Below, one piece after another: positions 4,873 through 63,082 of a stretch of 64,000 bases of DNA; the stretch's first letter is position 1, and the number at the start of each line of letters is the position of its first letter. Below the pieces are notes generated by a model. The model was not told the origin of the DNA and did no database searches. It saw nothing but the letters and a program-made list of their open reading frames with translations. The stretch is from Candidatus Woesearchaeota archaeon (GTDB lineage: Archaea > Nanobdellota > Nanobdellia > Pacearchaeales > GW2011-AR1). The stretch is from NCBI GenBank assembly GCA_964366325.1, contig CAYITD010000001.1, positions 41,922 through 105,921 of the forward strand. The letters are read 5' to 3'. The translations under genes and the position numbers were made by a program.

Positions 4873-4896
4873 GAAAATCTTTTTTAAGTTTAAAAT

Positions 4897-4971: not shown

Positions 4972-4992
4972 TTAAAGCAAAGAGTAAAAACC

Positions 4993-5000
4993 TTTTTAAG
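4993..5000 (+). promoter_or_regulatory. TATA-like box upstream of tRNA-Gly
   Basis: TTTTTAAG is centred about 27 nt upstream of the tRNA 5' end at 5024. Confidence 0.45.
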
Positions 5001-5023
5001 CCCTTAAGTAGCTAATTTATCAA

Positions 5024-5095
5024 GCGCTGTTAGTTTAGTGGTTAGAATGGCCGGTTTCCACCCAGTCGACGGGGGTTCGATTCCCCCACAGCGCA
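5024..5095 (+). tRNA. tRNA-Gly (anticodon UCC)
   Basis: Hand-folded cloverleaf: acceptor GCGCTGT/ACAGCGC, T arm GGGGG-TTCGATT-CCCCC, anticodon loop TTTCCAC, discriminator A. The anticodon stem GCCGG/CCAGT has one C-A mismatch. No CCA is encoded. Confidence 0.85.
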
Positions 5096-43663: not shown

Positions 43664-43664
43664 T

Positions 43665-44678
43665 TTAGATGAATATACCTTTATAGAAAATTAAGAATCC
43701 TAAAACGATTATAAAAATCTGAAATAACCATATAGCTAAAACAACCTTCTTTTCATTCGCTTTTCCATTATATTTATTTATTAGATATATTGCTAAATGA
43801 TTAAGGCTGTAAATTTTATCGTATTCAAGTTCAAGAAAATTATCTTTTTTTGGCCTTCCAAAAGAGTATTTTTTTAGACCTCCTCTTAGCTTAAGTATTG
43901 TTTCAATTAGGTAAGGTATAAAGAAAAACATCGCTATTTTTTCAAAGTTGCCTAATATGGCCATTATAGCAATCATCGCACCAATAGGATAGGTCAGAGA
44001 ATCTCCGGGGAAAATTTTTGCAGGATAAAAATTGAAAATTAAAAATGCTAACAAAGAAGCAATCATACATATAGCGATAAAAGCAAGCCAAGTATGTCCA
44101 GTTAAATAGGCTACAATGCTTAAAGCACTCAAAATAAATATTCCCTGTCCAGCCTCTAGGCCATTAAACCCTGCCAGAAAGTTAAAAGTTGTTGTAGTGC
44201 CAGTTATTGCCAAAGGTATTAAAAAAAGAGGATAAATTAAACCTAAATCAACGTTTCCAATTAAAGGTAGTAAAATAGAGCTTTTACCAGCATTTATCAC
44301 AACCAAAGGTATTGATGATAAGGCGACAAGAACAATTCTTGTTCGTTTAGATAAACCTCCCTTTCTCCAGCCAAGTAAATCATCAATAAAACCTAAACCT
44401 CCAACTAAAAGAATAACAGTTAATAAAGAAAACATTTCTATAAGGTTATTGTTTTCTTTTAAATAAAAAACGAGAAGACCAATATATAAAAGAATTCCAA
44501 TAACAAAGCCAACAAGTGTAGATATTCCTCCAGATCCAGCAACTTTAAGTTTAGATAATTTATTCATATCTTCCCACATCAAATCTATTTGGTGAGCTTT
44601 TTTTATCCAAGAAGGTATTATAAAAAATGTTACTATAAAAGTGACTAATACAGGCAAAACTAAAATATGTTCTATCAT
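43665..44678 (-). CDS. dolichyl-phosphate hexose/HexNAc-1-phosphate transferase (MraY/WecA/AglH family)
   Basis: It has GFIDDLLGW, FNFLAGFNGLEAGQG and FPGDSL, and is polytopic. Confidence 0.8.
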   Translation of the reverse strand: MIEHILVLPVLVTFIVTFFIIPSWIKKAHQIDLMWEDMNKLSKLKVAGSGGISTLVGFVIGILLYIGLLVFYLKENNNLIEMFSLLTVILLVGGLGFIDDLLGWRKGGLSKRTRIVLVALSSIPLVVINAGKSSILLPLIGNVDLGLIYPLFLIPLAITGTTTTFNFLAGFNGLEAGQGIFILSALSIVAYLTGHTWLAFIAICMIASLLAFLIFNFYPAKIFPGDSLTYPIGAMIAIMAILGNFEKIAMFFFIPYLIETILKLRGGLKKYSFGRPKKDNFLELEYDKIYSLNHLAIYLINKYNGKANEKKVVLAIWLFQIFIIVLGFLIFYKGIFI

Positions 44679-44680
44679 TT

Positions 44681-47386: not shown

Positions 47387-47404
47387 ATGTTTAAAAATAA
47401 AGGC

Positions 47405-47413
47405 TATATAAAT
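47405..47413 (-). promoter_or_regulatory. TATA-like box for the aglB operon
   Basis: ATTTATATA (minus-strand reading of 47405-47413) lies 23-26 nt upstream of the tandem ATGATG start at 47381-47386. Confidence 0.45.
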
Positions 47414-47576
47414 TTTTCAATTTTGTTTATGCAGCATAATTTAAATACAATTCATCATATCATCAAAGATGGGGAGAAATAGGCCAAATTCAAGCAGAGA
47501 TAATGAATTCTCTAATTTGGATAAACCTCATAATTATTCAAATTTAAAATAAAATTACAATAACCAAAATAATATA

Positions 47577-49148
47577 ATGAAAGAAGATAACAGTTTAGAA
47601 ATAAGAGAGTCCTTGAAATTAATAGCGAAAACTTCAGTAATAGTTTTTTTAAGTATTGTTTTTTCGAAGATAGTCGGATACATTTATAGAATATTGATTG
47701 CAAGATATTACGGACCAGAGATTTATGGTGTTTTTCTAATTTCTTTAATGGTCGCGGGCTGGTTTGGCGCTTTTTTTTCACTCGGTTTGTTAGAAGGTGT
47801 TGTAAGGTTTATCTCAATATTTCGTGGAAAGAAACAATTCAATAAAATAAAATACCTATACAATTTTTCATCACTAGTTTTGCTAACCACCGGATTATTA
47901 GGCGGAATTGTGATGTTTCTAACTGCGGATACGATTGCTATAAAGCTATTTCATAACCCAGAACTAACAATATTCATTAAACTATTAGGTTTGATTATGC
48001 CTATTTCTCTAATCTCTAACCTATTTCTTTCAATACTCAGAGCTTTTGAGAAAATTTATTGGTATTCTTTTATTTTCAATATAATACAAAATCTAACAAA
48101 AATTTCTTTGTTAGTGATTTTTATTATTTTGAGTGTGAATAGCTCAGCAGTAATACTTTCCCATATTTTAGCGGTAATACCCACATTAATCTTGTCTTAT
48201 ATAATTTGCAAGAAAGGGATAAAATTTTTATTTAAAAATGAATCAAAATTGAGAGAAACAAAGCTAATGAGGAAAGACTTAATTTATTACTCTCTACCTG
48301 TGATGTTCCATACAATTCTTTCTTCATTTTTCTTCTGGATAGACACTTTTTCAATTGGTTTAATCAATGGAGCGCTAGAAGTAGGAATTTATAATGCTGC
48401 AGTACCCATAGCCACATTGTTAGTTTTTGTGCCTGAAATTTTTATGCAACTTTTTTTCCCAATGATAAGTAAAAAATTATCACAAGGTAAAATTAACAAT
48501 GTGGAAGAATTGAGCAAAACAGTCTCAAAATGGATTTTAATATTAAACTTACCTATTTTTTCAATAATGTTCTTCTTTCCAGGAATAATAATAAATACAC
48601 TATTTGGCAGCAATTATTTAGCAGCCGCAGATTCATTAAGAATCCTTTCTATAGGTATGTTTTTCTCTTCTTTTTTCATAGTCTCAAATAACCTTCTATC
48701 AGCAGCAGGAAAATCAAAAACTATATTATTTGATATAGTACTTGCAGGTTTACTTAATCTAGTTTTAAATCAGGTTCTTATTCCAGTTTATGGGATAAAA
48801 GGAGCAGCATACTCAACCACTTTATCTTTAATATTGTTAAACCTGCTTTTCTTCTACCAATCTTACAAATACACTAAAGTTTTTCAATTAAGAAGAAAGA
48901 TGTTAGGGATAGTTTTAGTGGCCTGTATATCTGCTATCTCTCTTATAATTATAAGAAGTTTTCTTTTAGTAAATCTTTATACTTTAATATTTGCAGGCTT
49001 AGTTTATGGTTTAGTTTACATGGCCCTAATATTTTTAACCAGATCTCTGGACAGTCAGGATTTATTTATAATAAAGACATTCTCTTCCTCATTATTTAAA
49101 AAATCAAATAAAATCTACCAGAAGATCTCTTCAAATCATAGAGTTTAG
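47577..49148 (+). CDS. MOP-superfamily polysaccharide flippase (Wzx/MurJ-like)
   Basis: This 523-aa protein has about 14 TM segments and the typical N-terminal region VIVFLSIVFSKIVGYIYRILIARYYGPEIYG. Confidence 0.7.
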   Translation: MKEDNSLEIRESLKLIAKTSVIVFLSIVFSKIVGYIYRILIARYYGPEIYGVFLISLMVAGWFGAFFSLGLLEGVVRFISIFRGKKQFNKIKYLYNFSSLVLLTTGLLGGIVMFLTADTIAIKLFHNPELTIFIKLLGLIMPISLISNLFLSILRAFEKIYWYSFIFNIIQNLTKISLLVIFIILSVNSSAVILSHILAVIPTLILSYIICKKGIKFLFKNESKLRETKLMRKDLIYYSLPVMFHTILSSFFFWIDTFSIGLINGALEVGIYNAAVPIATLLVFVPEIFMQLFFPMISKKLSQGKINNVEELSKTVSKWILILNLPIFSIMFFFPGIIINTLFGSNYLAAADSLRILSIGMFFSSFFIVSNNLLSAAGKSKTILFDIVLAGLLNLVLNQVLIPVYGIKGAAYSTTLSLILLNLLFFYQSYKYTKVFQLRRKMLGIVLVACISAISLIIIRSFLLVNLYTLIFAGLVYGLVYMALIFLTRSLDSQDLFIIKTFSSSLFKKSNKIYQKISSNHRV

Positions 49149-49812: not shown

Positions 49813-51261
49813 ATGAAAAGAGAAATTGTTATTTTAGGAGCCGGACCTGCGGGAATGTCCTGCGCTATGGAGCTTTTTAAATCCGGTAAAAATGTAACTA
49901 TAATTGAAAAAGAGTCACAAGTAGGGGGTTTGGCCACTACATTAAAGTTCAAGGAGGGCAATTTTTTGTTTAGAACAGATCTAGGGCCCCATAGATTTTT
50001 TTCCAAAAATCCCTACTTATACAGTTTTATTGAAGATCTTCTAAACGAAAAATGGATTAAGGTAAAAAGGCAGACGAGACAATATATAGATGGTAAGTTC
50101 TATGATTACCCAATAAAAGCTATACAGGCTTTTAAAAATATTGGATATACAAGATCAATTTCTATGGGGTTTTCATATATAATAGGAGTGACTAAATATA
50201 AAATATTAAAGAAAAGTATCAAGACATTTGAGGATTATATAATTGCTAATTTTGGGAAAAAACTTGGTGAATTTAATATGTTAAATTACACAGAAAAGCT
50301 ATGGGGTCAGCCTTGTAGTACTTTACATCAAGACTGGGCTAAGCAAAGAATAAAAGGTCTTAATTTTATTTCGGCATTAAAAAATGCAGTTTTTTCTAAA
50401 AAAGATCTCAATGAACCAAAAAGTTTAGTGGACATGTTCTATTACCCTCAATATGGGACTGGCTTGATATATGAAGCAATTGCTCAAAAAATAAAAAAAG
50501 ACAGTAAAATTTATCTCAATAGTTATCCTGTTAAAATAAATCTTAGAAAAAATGAAATTCAAAGTGTAGACTGTATCATAGGAGGGAAGAGAAAAACAAT
50601 TTATCCTACGTGGTGTGTTAGCTCCATTCCGATAACTCAATTTTTTAAATTAATCAACCCTGCTCCTCCCAAAGAGGCAATAAAATCAGCGAGTAAACTA
50701 AAATGGAGGTCTCAAGTTTATCTGTTTATTACATTGGATAGGGAATCTGTCACTAAGGATAACTGGATTTATTTTCCAAATAAAGAGATTCCATTTGGAA
50801 GAATTTCAGAAATGAAGAACTTTAGCCAAGATATGAGTCCTAAAAATAAAACTTCAATATTTGTGGAATTTTTTGTGGATGAAGGAGACAAAATTTGGAA
50901 TATGGAGAAAGATGATCTGTTTAATCTAGCTATGCCTTTTTTTGAGAAACTAGAATTCTTCAAAAGAAGTGAAGTTAGAAATTATTACTTGCTGAAAAAG
51001 AAAAATGTTTATCCAGTTTATGATCTTACTTATCAAAAACACCTTGAAGTTGTTAAAAACTACTTAGACAAAATTCATAACCTCTCTTACATTGGCAGAC
51101 CCGGTCGATTTAAGTATAACAATCAAGACCATAGTCTAGAAATGGGCATGTTAGCTGCTAAAAGTATTATTGAAGGAAAAAAATATGATTTAGAAGAAAT
51201 TGGTTCTGAAGAGGAGTATTTTGAAAAGGGATACTTAAAAGATGGTAGTAAAAAAATTTAA
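49813..51261 (+). CDS. FAD-dependent oxidoreductase (amine-oxidase / UDP-galactopyranose-mutase-like fold)
   Basis: It has the dinucleotide motif VILGAGPAGMSCA..E, IIEKESQVGG, YTEKLWG and YYPQYGTG. Confidence 0.65.
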   Translation: MKREIVILGAGPAGMSCAMELFKSGKNVTIIEKESQVGGLATTLKFKEGNFLFRTDLGPHRFFSKNPYLYSFIEDLLNEKWIKVKRQTRQYIDGKFYDYPIKAIQAFKNIGYTRSISMGFSYIIGVTKYKILKKSIKTFEDYIIANFGKKLGEFNMLNYTEKLWGQPCSTLHQDWAKQRIKGLNFISALKNAVFSKKDLNEPKSLVDMFYYPQYGTGLIYEAIAQKIKKDSKIYLNSYPVKINLRKNEIQSVDCIIGGKRKTIYPTWCVSSIPITQFFKLINPAPPKEAIKSASKLKWRSQVYLFITLDRESVTKDNWIYFPNKEIPFGRISEMKNFSQDMSPKNKTSIFVEFFVDEGDKIWNMEKDDLFNLAMPFFEKLEFFKRSEVRNYYLLKKKNVYPVYDLTYQKHLEVVKNYLDKIHNLSYIGRPGRFKYNNQDHSLEMGMLAAKSIIEGKKYDLEEIGSEEEYFEKGYLKDGSKKI

Positions 51262-51759: not shown

Positions 51760-53436
51760 ATGGTTTTGCAAATTGCTCATTCTTTTAATGAAATCAAACA
51801 ACGTTTTAACAAGATTAATCCTTTTCTTGTGGCAGTTATTTTTTTTATTCTTATTTTTTTTATTCTTATTCTTTTTAATAGAGATATGCCGAGTGGCGAT
51901 GCGTCTGAATATTGCAATAATGCCTATCGCTTTTTTAAAGGAGACCTGCCATATAAGGATTTCTGGCTTATGTTTCCTCCAGGAGAACTATATTTTCCTG
52001 CGCTAATTTTCTTTTTTTTTGGTTTTAAGTATCAGGCATTGTTCATGTTTCTTATGTTCTCGAGTGCATTAATTGGTTTTCTTTCTTTCTTTCTTGCACG
52101 CAGATTTACTAGAGACAATTTTTGGGCGATGATTATCGCGATAATTGTTCAATTCTCAGGGGTTCCGCAATTTTATGGGCCAAATGATGGAGCTCATATT
52201 TATTTATTATTTTTGTTAGTTGCTGCCTTATTTTTTTTTAAAGACAAATATGAAATGCGTCCATTGCTTATGTTTTTTGCTGGAGCATTCATTGGGCTGG
52301 CTTCTCTTTGCCGTTTTTTCGAGACCGGTGCTTTTGGGTTATCTCTTCTTTGCACAACTTTCTGGAGAGCCTATATAACCAAGGCAGATTTTAAAAGAGT
52401 TATCCAAGGGCTTTTTTATCTCTTTGCTGGTGTATTCTTTTTATTATTTTTTGCTTATCTACCTCTTAGAAGTGTGTTCAATTCGGCTTTCGAAGAAATA
52501 ATTATTCATTCTATTAGGCATGGAACTTCTGGAGTATTCAATCTTCCTTATTTTTATACAACTAGCGTTTTTCTAGAAACTTTAGTTGATATTTTTTACG
52601 CTCCGAATATATTTGATTTATCTTGGATAACTAGTTTAGCAGGAATCACCTGGAGGCTTCTTTTTAATGTTATCTATCAATTACTTATTCCCTTAGCAAT
52701 TATTGCACTAATTGTTTTATTTATTAAATTTAAAGTTTTATCTGAATTTGAGTTTGCACTTCTTTTTTTTGTTCTTTGGGGCATATTCAGTTTTCCAAAA
52801 GGGTATGCTATTCCAGACAGAGCACACTTGTCTGTTGCAGTAACTCCTTTACTTTTTGGATTTGTTTTATTTGTAAAAAGGTATTGCAATTTTAAAACAG
52901 ATAGGGCTAAAGTTTTGCAAAATATTGTCTGTTTTTTAGCTTATCTATCAGTAATATTGTTATTAATCTCCACACCATTATTCATTGGTGTTTCTCTCAT
53001 TAATGGTTTTTCATCGAATCAATATGAAATAAATGCTCCAGAAGAAAAAATTTTTATAAATAATAAAGAGCGAGCGGCAGAATCCAATTTGTTAATAAAA
53101 TTTGTAGAGGACAATTCTGAAAAAGGAGATTACATTTTTGTTTCACCGTTTGACACTCCTCCTTTATACATGTTTACTCAAAGAAAAAACCCAACGTATT
53201 ACGATTCAACTATCGATCTTTTAACAAATGATTCGAGTTCGGAGGAGAAGCAAAAAAATATTTGCGATGATATATCTTCAAAGAAAACAAAATTGATTAT
53301 TCATTCTGATTGCCTGTTAGAAATGTGGGGTAAATGCAAATCTAATTTGCCAATCCTAGAAAGATGCATAAACGAATCATATTCTCTAAACAGATCTTAT
53401 GGAAAATATAAGTTATATTTGCCTAGAAAGGGTTGA
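51760..53436 (+). CDS. polytopic membrane protein, probable GT-C-like glycosyltransferase
   Basis: This 558-aa protein has many TM segments. Its first loop is DASEYCNNAYRFFKGDLPYKDFW..FPPGE. The TATA-like box CTTTATAAGC lies 28 nt upstream. Confidence 0.4.
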   Translation: MVLQIAHSFNEIKQRFNKINPFLVAVIFFILIFFILILFNRDMPSGDASEYCNNAYRFFKGDLPYKDFWLMFPPGELYFPALIFFFFGFKYQALFMFLMFSSALIGFLSFFLARRFTRDNFWAMIIAIIVQFSGVPQFYGPNDGAHIYLLFLLVAALFFFKDKYEMRPLLMFFAGAFIGLASLCRFFETGAFGLSLLCTTFWRAYITKADFKRVIQGLFYLFAGVFFLLFFAYLPLRSVFNSAFEEIIIHSIRHGTSGVFNLPYFYTTSVFLETLVDIFYAPNIFDLSWITSLAGITWRLLFNVIYQLLIPLAIIALIVLFIKFKVLSEFEFALLFFVLWGIFSFPKGYAIPDRAHLSVAVTPLLFGFVLFVKRYCNFKTDRAKVLQNIVCFLAYLSVILLLISTPLFIGVSLINGFSSNQYEINAPEEKIFINNKERAAESNLLIKFVEDNSEKGDYIFVSPFDTPPLYMFTQRKNPTYYDSTIDLLTNDSSSEEKQKNICDDISSKKTKLIIHSDCLLEMWGKCKSNLPILERCINESYSLNRSYGKYKLYLPRKG

Positions 53437-53741: not shown

Positions 53742-56453
53742 ATGTATAATTTAAAGAAATTTAAATTTCAAGTTGCTGGAATAATAATAGTTACAGCTCT
53801 TTTTTTCTACATAGAGTTATTGCACCCGTATAATTTTTTGAAAGATGATAATTTCACGCAATTTTTACCAGTTATTCTAGATGGAATGAAACAGCTTTTC
53901 AATGGTGGTTTTCCTTTTCTTGATTTACATCAATATACAGGTACAAAAATTTTTGAATCTGGCATATATGCAGTTTTATACCCTATTACAATCATCTCTT
54001 ATATAATTTCCCACTTTATTTTTAAAAATGACTTCTTTCTTCTTGAAATCTTTGTTTTAATACACATCATACTAGGTTTTCTAGCAACATATTACTTTTT
54101 AGCAAACAAGATAAAAAAATTAGTATCTCTGTGCGCAAGCATTGCGTTCGTCTTTTCCGGATATGTGCTAATTGCGACAAGTTTTTGGTATTATGTCATT
54201 CCAACCATAGTTTTTCTGCCTTTAATGCTAATCTTTCAAGATAAAATAAGCAGTAGTAAGCAGGATTATTTTAAAATATTTCTTTTTGGTATAACGAGAG
54301 GTGTTTATTTTTATTCTGGAAATGTGCAATATTTCTTATTTTCATGTATGTTTGAAGCACTTTATTTCATTTTAATTTCTTATCAAAATGATTGGAAGAA
54401 TTTTTCAAAAAATTTCGAGAAATATATCCTATCGCTATTTATAACTTTAATAATAATCTTTCCTTTATTCCTCTCTCAGCTTGCAGCGGTTAAGTTGTCA
54501 CATAGAGACAGCCCAGGCAATATTAATTATATTTTAAGTGCCTCATCTGCGCCACGCGAAATAATACTTGGTTCTTTGTTTGTATATCCAATTGTAAAAG
54601 GCGCCAATGCTTTTGCGTATGCACCTTCATCTTACATACATCTTTATTATTCAGGCACCCTTTTTTCATTGTTATTCTTTTTAGGCGGATTTTATTATCT
54701 AAAAAAATATAAATCAAAATCTCTTAGAAATATATCTCCTCTTTTCTGGTTGGGATCTTTATCGATCATACTAAGCTTGGGATACGTCGGAGGCATATAC
54801 CTCATAGGAGTTTTAATACCTATAATAAAAAACTTTTCAGGCCCATTTAAGTTTACTTTGTTCACAAATTTCTTTACAATCACATTTGGTGCTTTAATTT
54901 TGTCAAATATAAAAAATATAAACTATAAAAAGACAATACATCTAATTATATTGCTCTTCAGTCTTTTGATTTTGTATCATATTTATATTTGTAGTGTAAC
55001 TTCTGCATCTTATTATGGCGATAATTTTCCATTAAATTCAACTAAATATGATAAATTGAAATTAGAAGGATATAGAAGCATAAGCGTTTTTACTAACAGC
55101 ACTAATAATCCTCAATTAGTAAAATTCTCTACAAATAAGAAAAATTTTGCAGAGTCTTCGTATGTCGCTCATAATTTTGCTTCGTATTATAATGTAGACC
55201 ATATTTCAGGATATGAAACATTTAATGATTATCTGACTAATGAAAAAATATCTATTGGAAGATTTGGCCTAACAAATGTAAAGCTTAATCTTACTACATT
55301 AAAAGAATATGGCGTAAAATATATATTCATTCCTAAAGATAGTCTGATTTACCATACAGAACTAAATAACTTGTCAATAAAATATGAAGAGGATGATCTG
55401 TTAATACTAGAAATGCCAGATCCTAAAGGTTACGTATTCTATGGCTCTGGAAACATAGGTTACAAAAATAAAAATAATCGTATTTATTTTTCTACGAATT
55501 TTACAGAAAACCAAAATGTCACTTTAAATTTTCTTTTCAAGGAAGGATATCATGTTAAAATAAGTGGAGTTAAAAAAGAAATTTACCAAGACACTTTTGG
55601 AAGAATGTATCTTCAAGTCCCTGCTGGGAAACATGAAATTGTGCTATATTATTATTCTAAACCTTTAATCTTTGGAATTATTTTAGCAATTGCATTTACA
55701 TTATTAGTATTATTTTTTATTAGATACAAAGAAAAAGCTTACCAAATAATTAATAAGACAATATTAAGTAAAAATAAATATTTTGATAAATTTTATAATT
55801 TTAAATATATTAAAGCGATTTTGTTAATTTTATTAGTAATCATAATTTTATTTTCTTTTACAATTATATTTAAATCTTTCACTTCCACTGATCAGATGGA
55901 AAAAATATTTTATAGCAGAATTGGACTAAAAGTAAGTATTGACAAATCTCATTTGCGTTTAACTAATGGAAAAATTGAATTGGAAAAAGTAGCGCTCTAT
56001 AATGAGGCAAACGAAATATTTTATTCTGAAATCATAAATTTTGATGTTGATTATATACAAAGTATAAAGGAATCAATTTCTAATAAAATGCCAATAATTG
56101 AATTTAGCGATATAAAATTTACCAATCTACATTTTAATACAGGCGAAAAAAATAACACCAAAGTTTGTTTAACACAATTAATCGTCAAAACTGATAAATC
56201 ATACCTCAATAAGTCTTTTTACTCTGATGAAATAACTTTGTCAAATGCTTCACTCAAGGTCCCTAATAAAGCCAAATTTGATATCGGAAGGGGAGAAGTT
56301 TTAGTTGAAAATAAAAGTTTAAAGCTAAGTGGTGAAATTCTCATTGAAAAATACATACATGGAAATGTTACACTGGGAGAAAATTCTAACTATGTAGAAA
56401 ATAGATGCATAAGTCTTCCAATTGAAAAGAATAATTTGTTTTATAGCTCTTAA
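53742..56453 (+). CDS. large polytopic membrane protein, YfhO-like GT-C glycosyltransferase (tentative)
   Basis: This 903-aa protein has an N-terminal LKDDNFTQFLPV..L..GGFPFLD..QYTG motif resembling the YfhO family. About 14 TM segments, a soluble domain, one more TM segment and a C-terminal domain follow. Confidence 0.45.
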   Translation: MYNLKKFKFQVAGIIIVTALFFYIELLHPYNFLKDDNFTQFLPVILDGMKQLFNGGFPFLDLHQYTGTKIFESGIYAVLYPITIISYIISHFIFKNDFFLLEIFVLIHIILGFLATYYFLANKIKKLVSLCASIAFVFSGYVLIATSFWYYVIPTIVFLPLMLIFQDKISSSKQDYFKIFLFGITRGVYFYSGNVQYFLFSCMFEALYFILISYQNDWKNFSKNFEKYILSLFITLIIIFPLFLSQLAAVKLSHRDSPGNINYILSASSAPREIILGSLFVYPIVKGANAFAYAPSSYIHLYYSGTLFSLLFFLGGFYYLKKYKSKSLRNISPLFWLGSLSIILSLGYVGGIYLIGVLIPIIKNFSGPFKFTLFTNFFTITFGALILSNIKNINYKKTIHLIILLFSLLILYHIYICSVTSASYYGDNFPLNSTKYDKLKLEGYRSISVFTNSTNNPQLVKFSTNKKNFAESSYVAHNFASYYNVDHISGYETFNDYLTNEKISIGRFGLTNVKLNLTTLKEYGVKYIFIPKDSLIYHTELNNLSIKYEEDDLLILEMPDPKGYVFYGSGNIGYKNKNNRIYFSTNFTENQNVTLNFLFKEGYHVKISGVKKEIYQDTFGRMYLQVPAGKHEIVLYYYSKPLIFGIILAIAFTLLVLFFIRYKEKAYQIINKTILSKNKYFDKFYNFKYIKAILLILLVIIILFSFTIIFKSFTSTDQMEKIFYSRIGLKVSIDKSHLRLTNGKIELEKVALYNEANEIFYSEIINFDVDYIQSIKESISNKMPIIEFSDIKFTNLHFNTGEKNNTKVCLTQLIVKTDKSYLNKSFYSDEITLSNASLKVPNKAKFDIGRGEVLVENKSLKLSGEILIEKYIHGNVTLGENSNYVENRCISLPIEKNNLFYSS

Positions 56454-56635: not shown

Positions 56636-57271
56636 TTATGGTTTTTCTAATTTTATTACTCCAGATTCTTCCCAAATTTGGGCATTATTTTGTGAAGTCA
56701 TAACTGCATCCAGCTTAAAGTTTAATTCTTTAATTTTTTTTATGTATTCTGGGATCTCTTGTGGCCTCCCCCATCTTTCAGGGCATACAAGACAGGACTT
56801 GAATGGCCTAATTTTCTCTATAACTGAATAGTTTAACGGAAGTAATGTATTGGTGTCTATCCATATCCATTCAACAAGAGTCTTGCCTTTTACAATTTGT
56901 GCTTCAGCCATTTCTATCGGTTCTGCTTCGCTATATCGGATAGCAATTTTGTTAAAATTCTCTCTTCTTGTAGAGCTGTAAATAAAAGGAAATTCAGCAT
57001 CCAGGATAAAGTAGTTATTTATGTTATATTTTTTAGCCAAAAGGATTATATCTTTTTCATAGCCGGCTTCTTTAACATTAAAGATTATAAAGGCATGCTT
57101 AAAGTTTTTTAAATATTCTTCTAATTCCTCATATTTCAAACCATCTCTCACTACATCATGGCTTAGAAGAATTTTACTTCCAAATCCTCTCACGTCCACT
57201 TCTACACCATATTTTTCAGGTATCCTTCTTAACTTTTCTATTTCATTTACTCTATGAATTATTACAGGCAT
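56636..57271 (-). CDS. PLC-like/GDPD-superfamily phosphodiesterase-like TIM-barrel protein
   Basis: VIIHRVNE...GVEVDVR...ILLSHD matches the HR / E.D / HD catalytic pattern of glycerophosphodiester phosphodiesterases. It is the last gene of the operon. Confidence 0.4.
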   Translation of the reverse strand: MPVIIHRVNEIEKLRRIPEKYGVEVDVRGFGSKILLSHDVVRDGLKYEELEEYLKNFKHAFIIFNVKEAGYEKDIILLAKKYNINNYFILDAEFPFIYSSTRRENFNKIAIRYSEAEPIEMAEAQIVKGKTLVEWIWIDTNTLLPLNYSVIEKIRPFKSCLVCPERWGRPQEIPEYIKKIKELNFKLDAVMTSQNNAQIWEESGVIKLEKP

Positions 57272-57990
57272 TATAGGTTTAACCTCTTTTTTAAATCAAA
57301 AGTGAATTTAATTGTTCTTTTTATGAACTTTATTTTAGATGCTAAGTTGTTATTCCATGCGCTATGGCCATAAATTCTTTTCTTAAAAAGAACAGGGAAC
57401 CTCAGGATTTTATATCCTTCTTTTTTTGCGGTATAGTATATATACAGATCAAATGAAAAATCTGATGGCGGGTCTTTAATTAATCCAATAAATGAATTAT
57501 GGAATAAATTTGGCTGGGCGTTAATATCATAAAGAGGTTTTCCAAGAATTAGAGTTTCAAAGACTGACATTCCAAATGTAAAAAAACTATCTGAAAGTGG
57601 TCTTCCATATCTCTTGCCCTTGACAAAAACTTTTTCATCACTATTTTTTTGAATTATGTTTAAGGCTCTAATTGTATCTTTCGGATCAGTTTGCAAATCT
57701 GCATGCGTCCAGCAGATAAATTTCCCCCTTGCAAATTTTAGCCCGCTGTATAATGATAAACCATAACCTCTTTCATTAATTAAAAGCGCTTTAACAAAAG
57801 TATATTTTCTTGAGAATTTTTTTATTACTTCTCTAGTTTTGTCAGTACTTCCAGTATCTTCGACAAATATAACTTCAATGTTTTTAACTTTTGTCAATTT
57901 TAGATACTCTGCAACAACTAGAGGAATATTCTGCTCTTCATTAAATACCGGTAAAACTATGGAAAGTTCAGGTTTCAATTTCTTAAGCAT
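57271..57990 (-). CDS. polyprenyl-phosphate glycosyltransferase, GT2 (GtrB/Dpm1/ArnC-like)
   Basis: It has LSIVLPVFNEEQNIP, VEDTGSTDKT and WTHADLQ. Confidence 0.75.
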   Translation of the reverse strand: MLKKLKPELSIVLPVFNEEQNIPLVVAEYLKLTKVKNIEVIFVEDTGSTDKTREVIKKFSRKYTFVKALLINERGYGLSLYSGLKFARGKFICWTHADLQTDPKDTIRALNIIQKNSDEKVFVKGKRYGRPLSDSFFTFGMSVFETLILGKPLYDINAQPNLFHNSFIGLIKDPPSDFSFDLYIYYTAKKEGYKILRFPVLFKKRIYGHSAWNNNLASKIKFIKRTIKFTFDLKKRLNL

Positions 57991-58802
57991 TTTCTAAAAT
58001 AATCCTCCCATAAAATTATTTCTTTTTCATCTAGGGGAATTTCCTTTAAGCTTTTAAATTTGTAAAAATACAATATTTTTTCAAATTCGTGAAATTCCTC
58101 AGGAGTTCCCCAGCCAATTAATAAATCTACGTCAAATATGCAACTCTTTTTATTAAGTAATTTTAAAGCTTTTGGAAGGTTATCCAAGTAATATTCGTTA
58201 TTAGTTTTTATCTGTTTCTCCATCATAATCCTGATAGCTTCAAAAAGCGTTTTCTTAGATTTAAGCCAAAAAGTTGCAGCAACAGCATGATCATTTAAGG
58301 GATTATCTGAAATGGGTATTTTTACACTCATGTCTTTTATTGTTTTATTATCTTCTTCTAATAAAGTATACCCCCAAGCTCGAGGGTTGTTCTGGATTCT
58401 CTTGTCTTTAGTAAATGTCCAGAGGATACAATCATAATTACTTTTTTTTAATTCCTCAAATTTTTTTTTATTATAAACAAATCCCATGTCGCACCCAGTT
58501 ACAATTACTTCCTCCTCCTCATTCAAATATTGCTCTGTACAAAAAATACTTGCTCCGCCCAGTAAGTCTTTATCTACTGTAATAATTGCTTTAGGAATTT
58601 TTCTTTTAATAACTTGATCAATACCAAATTGATCAATATGCTCTTGTTTCACGACAAATATCCATTTATCGCTAGGAGGTAAACAATTTATAACTTTCCA
58701 GATCATAGGCTCTCCATCAATTGGAAGTAAAGGTTTTGGCAACAAGTATCCTTCATCTGAAAATCTTTTCCCTTTTCCAGCCATCGTAATTATATTAGCC
58801 AC
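57975..58802 (-). CDS. sugar-phosphate nucleotidyltransferase (NTP_transferase fold)
   Basis: It has ITMAGKGKRFSDEGYLLPKPLLPIDGEPMI, which matches the G.G.R...PK.L signature. Confidence 0.6.
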   Translation of the reverse strand: MANIITMAGKGKRFSDEGYLLPKPLLPIDGEPMIWKVINCLPPSDKWIFVVKQEHIDQFGIDQVIKRKIPKAIITVDKDLLGGASIFCTEQYLNEEEEVIVTGCDMGFVYNKKKFEELKKSNYDCILWTFTKDKRIQNNPRAWGYTLLEEDNKTIKDMSVKIPISDNPLNDHAVAATFWLKSKKTLFEAIRIMMEKQIKTNNEYYLDNLPKALKLLNKKSCIFDVDLLIGWGTPEEFHEFEKILYFYKFKSLKEIPLDEKEIILWEDYFRKCLRN

Positions 58803-58834
58803 AAACTCCGAAAGGAAAGTTATCTTTAAGAATT

Positions 58835-59530
58835 TTATGCTTGTCCGTAATAGCTTTTTGAACCATGCTTCCTGGAAAAATGTTTTTCTATCAAAATTGG
58901 ATCTAAGGGAGGAGTTCTAGGATTCAATGCGAGCGTGGCGAAATTGATTCTAGCTATTTCCTCTAAAGCTATCGCCACTTCGAGTGTTTCTTTAACACTT
59001 CGCCCCCACAAAAATACTCCATGCCCTGGGATTAAACAAGCAGGCACATCCATTGGCGAAATTAGGTTAGTATTAAAAAACTCTACTATTGCCTTACCCG
59101 TGTTAGTTTCATAATTTGTTTGCACTTCTTCAGTCCTTAATGTTCTTACTACCGGAACTGAACCTTTAAAAAAATCTGCATGTGTTGTTCCAAAGCACTC
59201 AATCGGCTTAAGCGCCTGAGCGTGGGCAGTAGCATAGGGAGAATGAGTATGGATAACAGACCCTATTTCAGGAAATCCATTATAAAGTTCTAGGTGTGTT
59301 GGAAAGTCAACGCTAGCCCTATCATATTTGCCTTTATGTTTTATTTCTCCAGAGGTGTCCAAGTAAATAATATCTTGATCTTCCAACGCACTAAAATCAA
59401 CTCCGCTAGGTTTTATTCCAATAATTCCATCTCTTCTATCAATTGCGCTAAGGTTACCAAAATTCAACTTCACTAAGTTTTCAGTAGCCAACCTTTGATT
59501 ACCTCTTCTTATAACCGCATTTTCTATCAT
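58835..59530 (-). CDS. araD: L-ribulose-5-phosphate 4-epimerase (class II aldolase fold)
   Basis: It is collinear by eye with E. coli AraD, sharing GNLSAIDR, IKPSGVDF, FPTHLELY, VIHTHSPYAT, GTTHADFF, LEE and KHGSKSYYGQ. Confidence 0.85.
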   Translation of the reverse strand: MIENAVIRRGNQRLATENLVKLNFGNLSAIDRRDGIIGIKPSGVDFSALEDQDIIYLDTSGEIKHKGKYDRASVDFPTHLELYNGFPEIGSVIHTHSPYATAHAQALKPIECFGTTHADFFKGSVPVVRTLRTEEVQTNYETNTGKAIVEFFNTNLISPMDVPACLIPGHGVFLWGRSVKETLEVAIALEEIARINFATLALNPRTPPLDPILIEKHFSRKHGSKSYYGQA

Positions 59531-60141
59531 TTTAACTTGAATTTCTTTACTAGTAAATTCGATTGCGAAATATTATATAAAGATATATGATCTAGAAAAT
59601 AACTTTCTTTCATATCATTTTTTTCAATCACATCAAAAACTCGTTTAAATTTATTTTCTTCTATAGAAGCCAAAGTAATATGTGGGATCCAATTATCTTC
59701 TATATAAGGAAAGCCATATTCTTTAATCTTCTCTCTCTCTTGTTCATTAAATTTCAGATAATCTTTAGAATTTATCAAGATCGATTTTTTTGTGTTAAAT
59801 TTGTCTATTTTTTTTATTAGGTCAATTTGAAAATTTCTTAGTTTTTTCAAGCTATTTTGGTCAAATGAACAAACTAAAGTATTATTATCAGTTAGTACGT
59901 CTTTAAAAAAAACATTAAGTCCAGTGATATTTAACTTAATCTTTTCTGTAATTAAGCTGATTTTTTCAATTTCATCTAAGAGCTCAGCTATAGATTCAGA
60001 AGTCAAAACAATTAATGTCGTATGAGGTTCTTCAGATAGATATTTTTGATCTCCAATTAGATTCCTTATGAAAGATTTTTTACTATTTATTAAATTTTTC
60101 AGTTTCAATTCAGGTTCCAAGGCTATAAAGTACTTATCCAT
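59527..60141 (-). CDS. 2H phosphoesterase superfamily protein (LigT / cyclic phosphodiesterase-like)
   Basis: It has two HxTx motifs, EPHTTLIVL and IPHITLASI, about 115 aa apart. Confidence 0.6.
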   Translation of the reverse strand: MDKYFIALEPELKLKNLINSKKSFIRNLIGDQKYLSEEPHTTLIVLTSESIAELLDEIEKISLITEKIKLNITGLNVFFKDVLTDNNTLVCSFDQNSLKKLRNFQIDLIKKIDKFNTKKSILINSKDYLKFNEQEREKIKEYGFPYIEDNWIPHITLASIEENKFKRVFDVIEKNDMKESYFLDHISLYNISQSNLLVKKFKLK

Positions 60142-62653
60142 TTTTGAATTGTTTTAAAACTTCTCTAATCTGTTCACTACTTAGATCTATATATAATTTG
60201 CCATCCTTCTTTAAAAAAAATTTAAATTGTTCTAAGTGCGGAACAGTTATTTTATACCATTCCTTTTTAGGTATTCTTAAGCTGAGTCCGATTAATATCC
60301 TTAGTACTACATTATGTGTGCAAACGGCTATGTTTCTTTCTTCTCGTACATTTATATCTGCTAAAAAAGAGTTCATTCTATTCATTACATCAAGATAATT
60401 TTCTCCTTGTGGAAACTTTGGATCTTCTCCAAGTTCCCAAGCTTTTAGCATAAACGGGTGCTTTTGCTTGATGTAATTCGGATCTTTCCCATCAGCTAAT
60501 CCATAATCTATTTCCTTTAGCCTAGAATCTAGGTTTATTTTATTAAAACCTAATTCCTTTAAAGTCCCCAAACATCTGCTCAATGGCGAAGAGACTACAA
60601 AATTAGGCTCTCCAACTATCTCTTTAAATTTATTAATTGTTTTTTTATCAAGTTTAGTTATGTTAGGATTTTGTCTTTGACCAATAAAAAGATTTTTTTT
60701 ATTTAATTTAGTCTTGGCATGTCTGAAAAAAATAATCTCTTTTGAACTATCATTAAAGTAATTCTTAAATTGAAATTCAAAGTCTTTTATAAATAATTCA
60801 AGGTTTTTCTTTATAGGTTGGAAACTTTCATAAGTATTTTTCTTTTTCATTTTTTCTAATTTTTTTATGAAGATTTCATGTTTAATTCTATTTTTTGGAA
60901 ATAATCTAAAATATAGCTTCATTGTTTTTCTTAAATCATGTCTTTTATTTTCTTTAAAGTATAATTTTAAAAAATTAGACATAAGAAAATTTGCAATGTG
61001 GTATGAAAATTCAATCTTATCCTTAACATTAGCTAATTTATATTTTTTTTCTTCTAAAATTTTATCTTTGTCAAACAAGTACTCTCTGTAGGAGATTTTA
61101 TCTGCCAATACATCAGAAAGGTATTCACTTGCGCTTCTTCTAGTATTGAAGAAATCACTTGGTTGGATCATTCTCACCTTATAAATTTCAGCCATTGATT
61201 TTTTTACAAATATAGGTGATCTTTGCCAGTCAAAACATGTAAAGGGGCTTTTCTGACAATGTTGTTTATGCAGTTGTTTATCGTAAATCATCAAGTGGAA
61301 AACTATGTTTCTTTCGTTAAATTTTAGAGGACCAAATGTATTATTAATATATATTTTATATCCATATTTTGACTCCAGTTGAGTTTTCTTCTTATTAAAA
61401 CATTCAATAATAAACTCGTATTTATCTTTTGTTAGGCTGTCAGCTATAATTACTATATCTATATCACTAATTCCTTCAAGAGAATTGCTTTCTGCAAAGC
61501 TGCCTACTAACGTTCCAGATTCAACAAAATCAATAGAGTTAATAGTTTCTTTGATACCTTCAATTATGTCTTTTCTAAGTTCATCCCTTATGTCTCTATA
61601 TCTAGCGCTAGTTTTTAATTCCATAAAAGATTTAATTGGATTGTCTGAAGAAAATAAACTTGAAGCTGCTACGATATATTTTGCAGAGATTTGTGGTATA
61701 TTTGTAGGTTTTACTCCACCATCAAAGATTATATCAAATGAATGAGTCTTCTGCAACTCTCTTAGTTCTTTAAGTTTGTCTAGTGCAGATACTTCAAGGC
61801 CTTGTCCAGATTTCCCTAGGGTTTTTATTCCCATAACCTGCACAAATTCGATATTTTTTATATAAGGCATCAAATCTTTAATTTTTGATTCATAGCCCAA
61901 GATAATGCCGCATTTTTTCTTATTGATCTTACAAAATTCAATAATTTCATTTAAATTATCCTCAATTTCTAAATGGAACAAAATTATGTCAACATAAGGG
62001 TAAACTTTTTTTATCCATTCAAAAGGTTTTTTAGACATAACATGAAACATTTTTTTTAATGCCCAGGTTTTATTAATTTCTTTTATTAAAGACAAGTCAA
62101 CTTCACTACATTCCTTATTTATTGTTTCATCTACCAAGTCAATATGTATAAAATCGCAATAGTACTTGATTTTAGAGTAAGCTTCCTCAATTGATTGGTT
62201 CTTTGCTAGATAAATGGCTATACCTACATTTTTCATAAAATTAAAAGTTATTTTTCTATGCGCTAAATAACTAGCCATAAAAATTACAGAAGCAGTTGCA
62301 AATCTTAAGGTGGTGTAATCAACATTAAATTTTCGTGAAATCAATCCCATAATTATAAAATTCAAAATTAAAGAAATAGTAGATATTGTAGAAAATAAAG
62401 CAAATGTTCTAAGATTATTTTTTTTTGGCACTCTGAAGTTTAATCTTGAATTTAAAATATAACTTAGAAATAGACCTGACATAAAACCTATAGGGGCGCT
62501 GAAAATTAAAGAAACTCCAATTTTATTGAATTGACTTATTATTATTATTTCCAATAGTATCGAAAAGAAGCCAATTATTATGTAATTAAACAGATATCTA
62601 AACCTATAAATTAAAAAATTTATTCCTTTAACAATTGATTTTTTATTTACCAT
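60134..62653 (-). CDS. four-domain fusion protein: GtrA-like 4-TM module + ribulose-phosphate-3-epimerase-like TIM barrel + Pol-beta-type nucleotidyltransferase + histidine phosphatase (PGM-family)
   Basis: Residues 1-138 form the GtrA module (NSRLNFRV, AHRKITFNF). Residues 142-346 are Rpe-like (IHIDLVDE, FHVMS, VQVMGIKTLGKSGQ, IIFDGGV). Residues 375-465 are the NTase (GTLVGSFAE..GISDIDIVII). Residues 638-825 are the histidine phosphatase (IFFRHAKT, SSPLSRCLGT, EIDYGLADG, CTHNVVLR). It is a single uninterrupted 2520-nt ORF in roughly 20% GC DNA. Confidence 0.7.
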   Translation of the reverse strand: MVNKKSIVKGINFLIYRFRYLFNYIIIGFFSILLEIIIISQFNKIGVSLIFSAPIGFMSGLFLSYILNSRLNFRVPKKNNLRTFALFSTISTISLILNFIIMGLISRKFNVDYTTLRFATASVIFMASYLAHRKITFNFMKNVGIAIYLAKNQSIEEAYSKIKYYCDFIHIDLVDETINKECSEVDLSLIKEINKTWALKKMFHVMSKKPFEWIKKVYPYVDIILFHLEIEDNLNEIIEFCKINKKKCGIILGYESKIKDLMPYIKNIEFVQVMGIKTLGKSGQGLEVSALDKLKELRELQKTHSFDIIFDGGVKPTNIPQISAKYIVAASSLFSSDNPIKSFMELKTSARYRDIRDELRKDIIEGIKETINSIDFVESGTLVGSFAESNSLEGISDIDIVIIADSLTKDKYEFIIECFNKKKTQLESKYGYKIYINNTFGPLKFNERNIVFHLMIYDKQLHKQHCQKSPFTCFDWQRSPIFVKKSMAEIYKVRMIQPSDFFNTRRSASEYLSDVLADKISYREYLFDKDKILEEKKYKLANVKDKIEFSYHIANFLMSNFLKLYFKENKRHDLRKTMKLYFRLFPKNRIKHEIFIKKLEKMKKKNTYESFQPIKKNLELFIKDFEFQFKNYFNDSSKEIIFFRHAKTKLNKKNLFIGQRQNPNITKLDKKTINKFKEIVGEPNFVVSSPLSRCLGTLKELGFNKINLDSRLKEIDYGLADGKDPNYIKQKHPFMLKAWELGEDPKFPQGENYLDVMNRMNSFLADINVREERNIAVCTHNVVLRILIGLSLRIPKKEWYKITVPHLEQFKFFLKKDGKLYIDLSSEQIREVLKQFKNG

Positions 62654-63069
62654 TTTGAATTTTTAAAAGCTATAATTTTAGTCCCAAAAAAATTTATAAT
62701 TGTAAGAATAGGGAGCAAAATAAAATTGGCAAAAATAGGATTTAGGTTTAATAAATCAACAAATATTTTCAATAAAGTTATATTGAAAATTAGAGAGATT
62801 AGATAAACCAAAAAATATTTGGGAAGACTTTTATTTATTTTTTCGTTTGAGCTAAAAGTTAAAGTTTTATTGAAGCCAAAACCGAAAACAACTCCCGCCA
62901 TAAAGCCGATTCCTGCAGAAAGCAAATAATTTATGCTGAAAATCGCAAAAAATATAAGAAAAATCAGATAATTTAATACTGTACTAGTCAATCCTATTAA
63001 AACGAAAACCATGGCTTGTCTAGTTATTTCTCTTCTTAACAGCACTTTTACCATAAAAATCAATTCCAA
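62647..63069 (-). CDS. GtrA-family membrane protein
   Basis: It has 4 TM segments, with GLTSTVLNYLIF, FNKTLTFSS and TKIIAFKN. ATG at 63054 is the more likely start, with a TATA-like box 25 nt upstream. Confidence 0.75.
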   Translation of the reverse strand: MELIFMVKVLLRREITRQAMVFVLIGLTSTVLNYLIFLIFFAIFSINYLLSAGIGFMAGVVFGFGFNKTLTFSSNEKINKSLPKYFLVYLISLIFNITLLKIFVDLLNLNPIFANFILLPILTIINFFGTKIIAFKNSKW

Positions 63070-63072
63070 GTC

Positions 63073-63082
63073 TATTTATAAT
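63073..63082 (-). promoter_or_regulatory. TATA-like box for the GtrA-fusion operon
   Basis: ATTATAAATA (minus-strand reading of 63073-63082) is centred about 25 nt upstream of the ATG at 63054. Confidence 0.45.

Follow-up and report, generated by a model that had tools for sequence, protein, structure and literature searches.

A conserved gene module of archaea and bacteria predicted to produce a lipid-linked, pentulose-derived sugar

In a 64,000-nucleotide stretch of DNA from a Candidatus Woesearchaeota archaeon (hereafter the window; positions 41,922 to 105,921 of contig CAYITD010000001.1, assembly GCA_964366325.1), seven minus-strand genes between positions 56,636 and 63,069 form a compact operon that faces a convergent gene for a large polytopic membrane protein. 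The nearest homologs of the proteins of this cluster belong to Nano-, Pace- and Woesearchaeota, and the proteins of the window carry no public names. The genes and domains are listed below with the evidence for each assignment; a tilde denotes fusion within one reading frame.

62647-63069, minus strand: GtrA-family small membrane protein (PF04138, 7e-21), with a likely start at the ATG at 63054
60134-62653, minus strand: GtrA~Rpe~NTase~HisPhos fusion (NTase, nucleotidyltransferase; HisPhos, histidine phosphatase) of 839 amino acids (aa), identified as an open reading frame (ORF) and by Pfam and NCBIfam
62243-62584, minus strand: N-terminal GtrA/DPMS-type transmembrane (TM) domain of the fusion (aa 24-137; PF04138, 3.3e-13)
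61652-62206, minus strand: Rpe-like TIM barrel of the fusion (aa 150-334; PF00834, 9e-19)
60746-61618, minus strand: ANT-like NTase domain of the fusion, of Pol-beta fold (aa 346-636; PF01909, 1.3e-5 over aa 377-431, and fold)
60236-60736, minus strand: histidine phosphatase (branch 1) domain of the fusion (aa 640-806; PF00300, His_Phos_1, 2e-26)
59527-60141, minus strand: 2H phosphoesterase (HTTL and HITL motifs; PF13563 below threshold)
58835-59530, minus strand: AraD-type L-ribulose-5-phosphate 4-epimerase (full-length alignment with 1jdi)
57975-58802, minus strand: NT3, nucleotidylyltransferase of sugar-1-phosphate type and GT-A fold (PF12804, NTP_transf_3, 3.8e-8)
57271-57990, minus strand: GT2, glycosyltransferase of DPM1/GtrB/ArnC type without TM helices of its own (PF00535, 1.2e-18)
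56636-57271, minus strand: U211, unannotated protein of GDPD/PI-PLC fold, 211 aa (fold match only)
53742-56453, plus strand: polytopic membrane protein of 903 aa, convergent to the operon (no Pfam match; 11 predicted TM segments)
63073-63080, minus strand: TATAAATA motif, possible archaeal promoter element, about 20 nt upstream of the ATG at 63054

Computed from these coordinates, the genes overlap by 7, 8, 4, 16 and 1 nt and are separated by a sole gap of 32 nt between AraD and NT3. This matches the initial annotation of the window, which had been made from the nucleotide sequence and its ORFs and described seven minus-strand genes with overlaps of 1-16 nt and a single 32-nt gap; its domain calls were likewise upheld by Pfam and NCBIfam, with the GDPD/PLC-like barrel supported at the level of fold. 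The TATA-like box that it placed upstream of the ATG at 63054 is present, but the octamer occurs at chance frequency (18 copies in the window against 15 expected, in DNA of 27-30% GC), and its position at 63073-63080 is compatible with a promoter role while giving no evidence for one.

The operon is one copy of a conserved module and not a local oddity. A profile of the NTase~HisPhos half of the fusion, scanned against one genome per prokaryotic species, identified 107 relatives among the species representatives; 80 loci, spanning about 20 phyla, were retrieved. Carriers comprise DPANN archaea, a metagenome-assembled genome (MAG) of the Methanosarcinales, Halobaculum, many Planctomycetota (including the cultured Limnoglobus roseus PX52), Verrucomicrobiota and Patescibacteria, along with Pelagibacteraceae, Bacteroidota, Marinimicrobia, Armatimonadota, Spirochaetia, Gemmatimonadota, Acidobacteriota and others. 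Each component of the window was searched against the six-frame ORFs of 84 loci, 51 of which had at least 2.5 kb of flank and are referred to here as well-flanked. Seven core functions, namely the GtrA-anchored Rpe-like barrel, the ANT-like NTase, HisPhos, the 2H protein, NT3, GT2 and U211, were found together in 46 of these 51 loci, with a median span of 6.3 kb. AraD was present in 35 of the 51, in variable position and orientation, and GtrA-family matches were found in 79 of the 84 related loci. Full-length homologs of the fusion number more than 60 in DPANN archaea, with one further example in Halobaculum sp. P14. In many bacteria the C-terminal half (NTase and HisPhos, about 480 aa) is a stand-alone protein, and the same genes recur in the neighbourhoods of Halobaculum, a planctomycete and another DPANN genome. 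No homolog of the NTase~HisPhos marker or of U211 was found in the plasmid and phage collections.

Co-conservation in both Archaea and Bacteria bears out the claim of the initial annotation that the genes form one functional unit. Its archaeal framing does not stand, as the module is not specific to archaea and most instances are bacterial. The three proteins whose roles it had left unexplained (the 2H protein, HisPhos and the GDPD-like protein) turn out, together with the ANT-like NTase domain, to make up the core of the module, being its invariant and most distinctive components.

Components of the module are fused to one another in many combinations. The loci encode GtrA~Rpe~NTase~HisPhos, 2H~NTase~HisPhos, NTase~HisPhos~2H (also in P0100), HisPhos~2H, NTase~HisPhos~NT3, NT3~GT2, GtrA~U211 and GT2~2H fusions, and both 2H~U211 and U211~nucleotidyltransferase fusions were identified among U211 homologs. 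The Rpe-like barrel carries an N-terminal GtrA-type TM fusion in almost every locus, and HisPhos shares a reading frame with the NTase-like domain in nearly all of them, the exceptions being L009 and L039. Because the catalytic signatures of all components are kept at 90-100% across 51-85 homologs, all of them appear to be active enzymes; the parts and their folds, the intact active sites, the co-conservation and the fusions are direct observations.

Two GtrA-type parts are encoded by the operon. We propose that the separate GtrA protein (62647-63069) is a polyprenyl-phosphate-binding membrane partner for GT2 and/or a flippase, and that the TM domain of the fusion, which belongs to a family named "GtrA/DPMS transmembrane domain" in Pfam (PF04138), holds the Rpe-like barrel at the membrane. 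The H-x-D, H-x-M and DGG motifs of this barrel align with those of rice and human Rpe (1h1y, 3qc3), and H28, D30, H62, M64 and D169 are at least 98% conserved among 76 homologs; the domain called Rpe-like in the initial annotation has therefore retained the metal ligands and catalytic residues of Rpe. The NTase-like domain scores 25.9 bits against PF01909 (cut-off 21). A single-sequence search of the PDB with this domain returned nothing meaningful and fold comparison alone was informative: the nearest PDB folds to its AlphaFold model (pLDDT 91.7) are ANT(9) (6xz0), ANT(3'')(9) (7uy4) and AadA, at a TM-score of about 0.5. These enzymes transfer a nucleoside monophosphate (NMP) to a hydroxyl of a small sugar-like molecule. 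In 85 homologs the GS...DxD motif (G38, S39, D51, D53) is invariant, as are about 30 other positions. The modelled fold leads us to propose an O-nucleotidylyltransferase acting on a sugar. In HisPhos, R8-H9, R57, E78 and H144 (domain numbering) are 100% conserved and the top NCBIfam match is the alpha-ribazole-5'-phosphate phosphatase CobC; we propose that it is a pentulose-5-phosphate phosphatase.

U211 is the most conserved protein of the module, with 55-68% identity among DPANN homologs, and its family comprises about 1,107 clusters at 50% identity. It has no match in Pfam or NCBIfam, PF03009 included. Its AlphaFold model (pLDDT 93.9) was matched by Foldseek to the GDPD barrels 7e2a and 7e0v (P. 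furiosus GDPD; TM-score 0.72, E 1.7e-5), and the next matches are also GDPDs. H6, R7, N9, E24, D26, R28 and H38 are invariant, with H6-R7, E24-x-D26 and H38-D39 placed at strand ends, and the spacing of H6-R7-x-N9, E24-x-D26-x-R28 and H38-D39 resembles that of the GDPD signature. On the basis of the model, we propose that U211 is a phosphodiesterase of GDPD/PI-PLC fold. Among its homologs, one is fused to a phosphatase of the inositol-monophosphatase family (P0244) and three to GT61 glycosyltransferases (P0280, P0306, P0351), which suggests that some lineages may use another phosphatase in place of HisPhos and that the donor may there be used by a soluble transferase.

In the 2H protein, the paired motifs are H40-T-T42 and H154-I-T156, and H40, T42 and H154 are 97-100% conserved in 76 homologs. 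It reaches 23.2 bits against PF13563, under the gathering score of 27, and weakly matches DUF1045, TIGR02258 and TIGR03223; a profile of the family gives weak matches to the structures of YjcG, LigT and a plant CPDase (1fsi). Elsewhere it is fused to NTase~HisPhos, HisPhos, GT2 or U211. A function as sugar cyclic-phosphate hydrolase is proposed from these similarities.

AraD can be aligned over its whole length with the E. coli enzyme (1jdi; E 3.6e-55, about 50% identity). Residues N26, K40, S42, G43, S73, D75, H94, H96, D119, H170 and Y228 are invariant in 51 homologs, a set that covers the Zn ligands, the equivalents of Asp120 and Tyr229 (D119 and Y228) and the phosphate-binding residues. 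Although it falls below curated cut-offs, narrowly for NF006047 (254.1 vs 257 bits) and widely for TIGR00760 (232 vs 389), the alignment and the conserved residues identify it as of the L-ribulose-5-phosphate 4-epimerase type, in line with its first description as a bona fide-looking AraD. It is an optional accessory of the module. AraD is missing from the locus in L003 and L004 (DPANN, JGI Ga0315274) and in 16 of the 51 well-flanked loci, and such loci may represent a second sugar variant, of D-xylulose rather than L-ribulose type.

The family profile of NT3 matched 4evw (2.5e-16), GlmU, ManC, RmlA, GalU and inositol-1-phosphate cytidylyltransferase in the PDB, that is, sugar-1-phosphate nucleotidylyltransferases only, with no IspD or TarI at E < 0.01. 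Its GxGxR motif, K23, D105, K161 and ExYxD are invariant, and a role in the synthesis of a nucleoside diphosphate (NDP)-sugar is proposed. The nearest solved relatives of GT2 include PfDPMS, GtrB and ArnC, with the N-terminal 120-134 aa aligned, and its invariant HADLQTDP aligns with DADLQNPP of ArnC. At 239 aa against the 322 aa of ArnC, GT2 has no counterpart of the ArnC C-terminal region, and this shortness fits a membrane part supplied by a GtrA-type protein; we propose that it is a polyprenyl-phosphate glycosyltransferase.

Aside from its TM segments, the 903-aa protein has an invariant PY.F..DN..QF.P motif just after the first of these, a conserved acidic motif of the first loop, and no Pfam or NCBIfam family matches it even at E <= 10. 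Homologs adjoin the module in L017 (a Pacearchaeote), L046, L070 and L080, the hosts of which include a Thermoguttaceae MAG and two Bacteroidota. We regard it as a candidate GT-C-type transferase that would use a lipid-linked sugar, and as a putative member of the module. More broadly, a polytopic protein of 500-900 aa directly abuts the module in 30 of the 47 loci with enough flank. The possibility that these proteins constitute a single family was rejected, as they fall into many small unrelated groups, and only 7 of 43 match PMT_2 or DUF6798. In the Pacearchaeota homolog of the 903-aa protein (L017:14085-16775), a C-terminal extracytoplasmic region has a weak DUF748/AsmA-like match (5.4e-6, under the cut-off), a hint that the putative transferase may have a domain associated with lipids or the envelope.

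A reduced version of the module is found in giant viruses. U211 homologs with 29-42% identity were identified on 51 IMG/VR contigs, many of them giant-virus MAGs (L086-L136), and the NTase~HisPhos marker was found in none of the viral contigs. In 50 of the 51 loci, viral U211 and a tandem NT3~NT3 protein are encoded either as a fusion or side by side; 45 of the 50 have two complete domains that both contain G-x-G-x-R, the second being nearer to cellular NT3. The viral loci encode a kinase that matches phosphoribulokinase best (8.5e-56, vs 4.6e-24 for uridine kinase) and has an unassigned N-terminal domain of 200 aa; they also hold a class II aldolase other than AraD, GT61 glycosyltransferases and an FkbM methyltransferase, and some adjoin the gene for a nucleocytoplasmic large DNA virus (NCLDV) major capsid protein (example loci: L109:7362-9617, L102:5166-8603, L121:9310-10692, L125:11018-12019 and L108:1154-2782). 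Phosphoribulokinase acts on O1 of a ketopentose phosphate. Viruses would thus repeat two features, chemistry at this position and a pair of nucleotidyl transfers around U211, which hints at independent support for the route proposed below. The viral donor would feed a soluble GT61 enzyme rather than a lipid carrier, and the gene content suggests that a related sugar may decorate giant-virus capsids. A fold search of BFVD gave as its best match a U211~glycosyltransferase fusion of Bodo saltans virus, with other matches being mimivirus-like. Chlorovirus N-glycans contain xylulofuranose (PMC9614988); a link of U211 to chloroviruses was considered and is unsupported, as the BFVD search returned no chlorovirus.

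Taken as a pathway, the module probably yields a lipid-linked, pentulose-derived sugar. The fuller reading, that the operon is an archaeal, partly fused version of a module that makes a polyprenyl-phosphate (here dolichyl-phosphate) sugar from a ketopentose 5-phosphate for use outside the cell by a variable GT-C-type transferase, we place at a probability of about 0.5. In step 1, the membrane-anchored Rpe-like barrel, with AraD where present, would set the configuration of the pentulose 5-phosphate (D-ribulose 5-phosphate to D-xylulose 5-phosphate to L-ribulose 5-phosphate). HisPhos would remove the 5-phosphate to give the free pentulose (step 2), and the ANT-like NTase would add an NMP to one of its hydroxyls, most plausibly O1, yielding an NMP-O-pentulose diester (step 3). 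U211 would cleave this diester, probably via attack of the neighbouring anomeric hydroxyl, to form a 1,2-cyclic phosphate (step 4) that the 2H phosphoesterase would open to the anomeric (C2) phosphate (step 5). NT3 would convert the latter to an NDP-pentulofuranose (step 6), the ArnC/DPM1-like GT2 with a GtrA-type domain would transfer the sugar onto dolichyl phosphate (step 7) and, after flipping, the 903-aa polytopic protein would add it to a surface glycan or protein (step 8). In this window, where AraD is present, L-ribulose would be the source of the sugar, or L-xylulose should the Rpe-like barrel come after AraD; in modules lacking AraD the source would be D-xylulose.

The substrates, the order of steps 2-5, the nucleotide and the acceptor are what we infer here, and several considerations shaped the order. 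Rpe and AraD act on acyclic ketopentose 5-phosphates, and a 5-phosphorylated pentulose cannot close a furanose ring, so the anomeric centre cannot be activated before the 5-phosphate is removed. NT3, being of the sugar-1-phosphate type, therefore needs an anomeric phosphate, and no kinase or phosphomutase encoded in the cellular module was found by Pfam, NCBIfam or the locus component search. Nucleotidyl transfer, diester cleavage, opening of a cyclic phosphate and a second nucleotidyl transfer make up the sole linear arrangement we found in which each product would fit the next substrate type. Members of the GDPD/PI-PLC superfamily often work through cyclic phosphates, and step 5 has a precedent in PhnP, which opens 5-phosphoribosyl 1,2-cyclic phosphate and so yields the anomeric 1-phosphate. 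The later steps agree with the idea in the initial annotation that nucleotide activation is followed by loading of a polyprenyl- or dolichyl-phosphate carrier, which fits NT3, the ArnC/DPM1-like GT2, the GtrA domains and the polytopic neighbours. The specific route from nucleotidylation through a cyclic phosphate to an anomeric phosphate is nonetheless tentative, and we hold it at well under even odds. Slightly more doubtful is a general route to activated ketopentofuranoses (xylulofuranose or ribulofuranose), in which a phosphoryl or nucleotidyl group placed on the primary O1 would be cyclised by U211 to a 1,2-cyclic phosphate, this would be opened, in cells by the 2H enzyme, to the anomeric 2-phosphate, and NT3 would then form the NDP-sugar. 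The O1 group would be supplied by the ANT-like NTase in cells, and by the phosphoribulokinase-like kinase and the first NT3 domain in giant viruses. In about 20 prokaryotic phyla, SAR11 and DPANN among the carriers, the donor would feed GT-C transferases that depend on dolichyl or undecaprenyl phosphate; in giant viruses it would feed GT61 Leloir transferases decorating the capsids.

Several observations weigh against this interpretation. The Rpe-like domain clears the Pfam family cut-off only, and scores below the NCBIfam equivalog cut-offs (TIGR01163, 66 vs 212.6 bits; NF004076, 104.7 vs 165); as its beta2-loop substrate residues also differ from those of Rpe, it may act on another ketose phosphate. 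Large-genome bacteria probably already own a housekeeping Rpe; that the module has a paralog of its own, anchored in the membrane in all cases, hints that the substrate differs and may be lipid-linked. The pentulose identities of the substrates are themselves predictions, and the chemistry of step 4, with a nucleoside as leaving group, is demanding. For U211, neither the single sequence nor the family profile found a GDPD in the PDB, and the match to GDPD catalytic residues was judged by fold and motif spacing rather than by residue-level superposition. The GT-C identity of the 903-aa protein is an inference only, and by a crude count of TM segments 17 of the 47 loci have no adjacent polytopic protein. 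Finally, neither a 2H protein nor HisPhos was detectable in the viral version, and those steps are therefore not universally required.

Of the alternatives, the one that survives best is a teichoic-acid-like pathway, which we nevertheless consider improbable. NT3 would here be an AbpA/TarI-like cytidylyltransferase making CDP-5-pentulose or a CDP-pentitol, the Pol-beta domain a LicD/fukutin-like phosphotransferase that adds pentulose or pentitol 5-phosphate to a glycan or lipid, and the phosphoesterases would trim or recycle. LicD and fukutin do have the Pol-beta nucleotidyltransferase fold, CDP-arabinitol synthesis in S. pneumoniae is known to proceed via CDP-D-xylulose, NT3 matches the MobA-like NTP_transf_3 family and its viral homologs match IspD weakly. 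However, a dehydrogenase or reductase domain is found neither in the seven genes nor in the conserved module loci, the NT3 profile has no IspD or TarI matches in the PDB, and the Pol-beta domain has a classical GS...DxD NTase motif with ANT enzymes as its best folds. The invariant pair of GT2 and GtrA, and the need for three phosphoesterases, would also be left unexplained. The teichoic-acid or pentitol-phosphate logic suggested in the initial annotation was set aside for the lack of a reductase, for an NT3 that is not of the IspD/TarI type and for a transferase that is a glycosyl-transferring GT2.

Somewhat less probable again is an aldopentofuranose, such as ribofuranose or D- or L-arabinofuranose, as the lipid-linked product of the module, in the manner of decaprenyl-phospho-arabinose (DPA), with the Rpe-like barrel or another part serving as aldose-ketose isomerase and HisPhos acting late, after lipid transfer. 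The absence from the cluster of a SIS/KdsD, RpiA/B or AraA isomerase, of a phosphoribosyl pyrophosphate (PRPP)-dependent UbiA-type transferase and of DprE1/E2 homologs argues against it, as does an Rpe-like site that keeps the two-Asp and metal arrangement of an epimerase; in addition, the ANT-like NTase, the GDPD-like protein and the 2H protein would have no role. In its favour, the near-constant fusion of the Rpe-like barrel to a GtrA-type domain that binds polyprenyl phosphate suggests that the barrel acts at or on a lipid, and CobC, the top NCBIfam match of HisPhos, acts on a 5'-phosphate after condensation. Rv3807c, or CobC in the assembly of the cobalamin nucleotide loop, would be models for such late removal of a 5-phosphate. 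The GT61 partners in viruses and in fusions also point this way, and GT61 enzymes carry out pentosyl (xylosyl, arabinofuranosyl) transfer in plants.

Unlikelier still, if only by a little, is a repair or salvage shunt, in which the phosphoesterases and the NTase would recycle an unstable NDP-furanose made by NT3 from a sugar phosphate supplied elsewhere. NDP-furanoses and UDP-apiose do decay to 1,2-cyclic phosphates that 2H enzymes hydrolyse, and a viral version without the 2H protein and HisPhos is what would be expected were these auxiliaries. Yet NTase~HisPhos, the 2H protein and U211 are conserved as strictly as NT3 and GT2, U211 is both the best-conserved protein and part of the minimal viral set, and the cellular module encodes no kinase or mutase that could be another source of the anomeric phosphate. 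Chance adjacency of an ordinary Rpe and AraD to unrelated genes of a glycosylation island, which the wealth of such genes in the window (AglB/STT3, GT4, several GT2s and flippases) might have suggested, is refuted by the recurrence of the same set in 46 of the 51 well-flanked loci of Archaea and Bacteria and by the many fusions between its components.

The operon sits in an archaeal-type glycosylation island with AglB/STT3, GT4, Wzx-like flippases, several GT2s, a PMT_2 protein and a GDP-mannose dehydratase. The part at window positions 39801-49148 is an archaeal N-glycosylation island, composed as follows.

39801-42461: three GT2 genes
42458-43663: Wzx-like flippase
43665-44678: GT4/AglH-like gene
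44681-47386: STT3/AglB oligosaccharyltransferase, 901 aa
47577-49148: second flippase/MatE-like gene

Between this island and the operon, a few kb from the module, lies a gene for a 482-aa flavoprotein (49813-51261) with amine-oxidase and partial UDP-galactopyranose mutase (GLF) matches, which could be a candidate furanose-forming mutase. A 558-aa ORF with no Pfam family (51760-53436) separates it from the gene for the 903-aa polytopic protein. Farther away, positions 18374-22204 encode a 1276-aa protein that combines FG-GAP repeats with a fungalysin (M36) peptidase-like segment and DUF4215; as a probable large secreted or surface protein, it is a possible target of glycosylation. The only RNA genes detected in the window are adjacent tRNAs, Arg(CCT) and Gly(TCC), at 4896-5095.

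To our knowledge, the ANT-like, GDPD-like and 2H enzyme types have never before been tied to sugar activation. Full-text literature searches turned up no account of the module or the fusion, and none of a nucleotide-activated xylulose. A survey of archaeal fusion proteins names other Rpe and HisPhos fusions and not this one (PMC11237513). According to reviews, xylulofuranose is a constituent of several O antigens and capsules, with neither its activated donor nor the genes being known (PMC7685785, PMC8707391); one of these, a 2019 review of E. coli O antigens, lists the NDP-xylulofuranose donor as yet to be demonstrated (PMC7685785). If the proposed pathway is correct, the module would supply the missing biosynthetic genes for keto-pentose residues of surface glycans, would install an anomeric phosphate in a new way, by nucleotidylation, cyclisation and ring opening, so that the activation chemistry would be categorically new, and would give a function to U211, a large family of "hypothetical" proteins. 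Among its carriers are groups that dominate ecologically or are little understood (Pelagibacter/SAR11, Planctomycetota, DPANN and Patescibacteria), with a reduced form in giant viruses, and a surface-glycan trait of this kind could affect phage and host recognition. The cultured carriers, namely Limnoglobus roseus PX52, Halobaculum sp. P14 and a Pelagibacter strain, allow direct testing.

Parts of the module resemble several known systems. The CDP-ribitol and CDP-arabinitol pathways (TarI-TarJ and AbpA-AbpB) share with it a start from ribulose or xylulose 5-phosphate and a nucleotidyltransferase, but the module has no reductase and no TagF- or LicD-type phosphotransferase, transfer being assigned to GT2. 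In Kdo and sialic acid synthesis, where a KdsC or NANP phosphatase is followed by a CMP-ketose synthetase, dephosphorylation likewise precedes anomeric activation by a GT-A-fold nucleotidyltransferase; the module differs in having two NTases of different folds together with GDPD-like and 2H proteins, and its NT3 is not KdsB/NeuA-like. Opening of a sugar 1,2-cyclic phosphate, as proposed for the 2H protein, has parallels in PhnP/DUF1045 of the C-P lyase pathway, which leads to ribose 1,5-bisphosphate, and in the CPDase of yeast or plants, which acts on ADP-ribose 1'',2''-cyclic phosphate. Whereas those enzymes serve catabolism and RNA processing, the 2H protein would install an anomeric phosphate for glycan synthesis.

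The mycobacterial DPA pathway, with its GtrA-like Rv3789, also places a pentose-phosphate-derived sugar on a polyprenyl phosphate for GT-C enzymes and also involves a GtrA-family protein and a phosphatase step. Unlike that pathway, the cluster encodes no PRPP-dependent UbiA-type transferase and no DprE1/DprE2 detectable by Pfam or NCBIfam; here, Rpe- and AraD-type epimerases would act on soluble ketopentose phosphates, and the nucleotide-sugar step of NT3 is present. Parallels in organization are Gtr (GtrA/GtrB/Gtr(type), for O-antigen glucosylation), ArnC/ArnE-F/ArnT and CsbB/GtcA/YfhO, with which the module shares a GtrA-family protein, a GT2 with a DADLQ-like motif and the pairing of a conserved donor part with a variable adjacent polytopic protein, here a putative transferase. 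In contrast to these systems, GT2 of the module lacks TM helices of its own, a six-enzyme block for sugar activation is built in and no described family includes the 903-aa partner. Glucose and L-Ara4N are almost certainly not the donor sugar. Collectively, these comparisons divide the module into an upstream half that is without a described counterpart and a downstream half, from NDP-sugar through polyprenyl-phosphate sugar to a putative GT-C transferase, that would work like Gtr, Arn and DPA.

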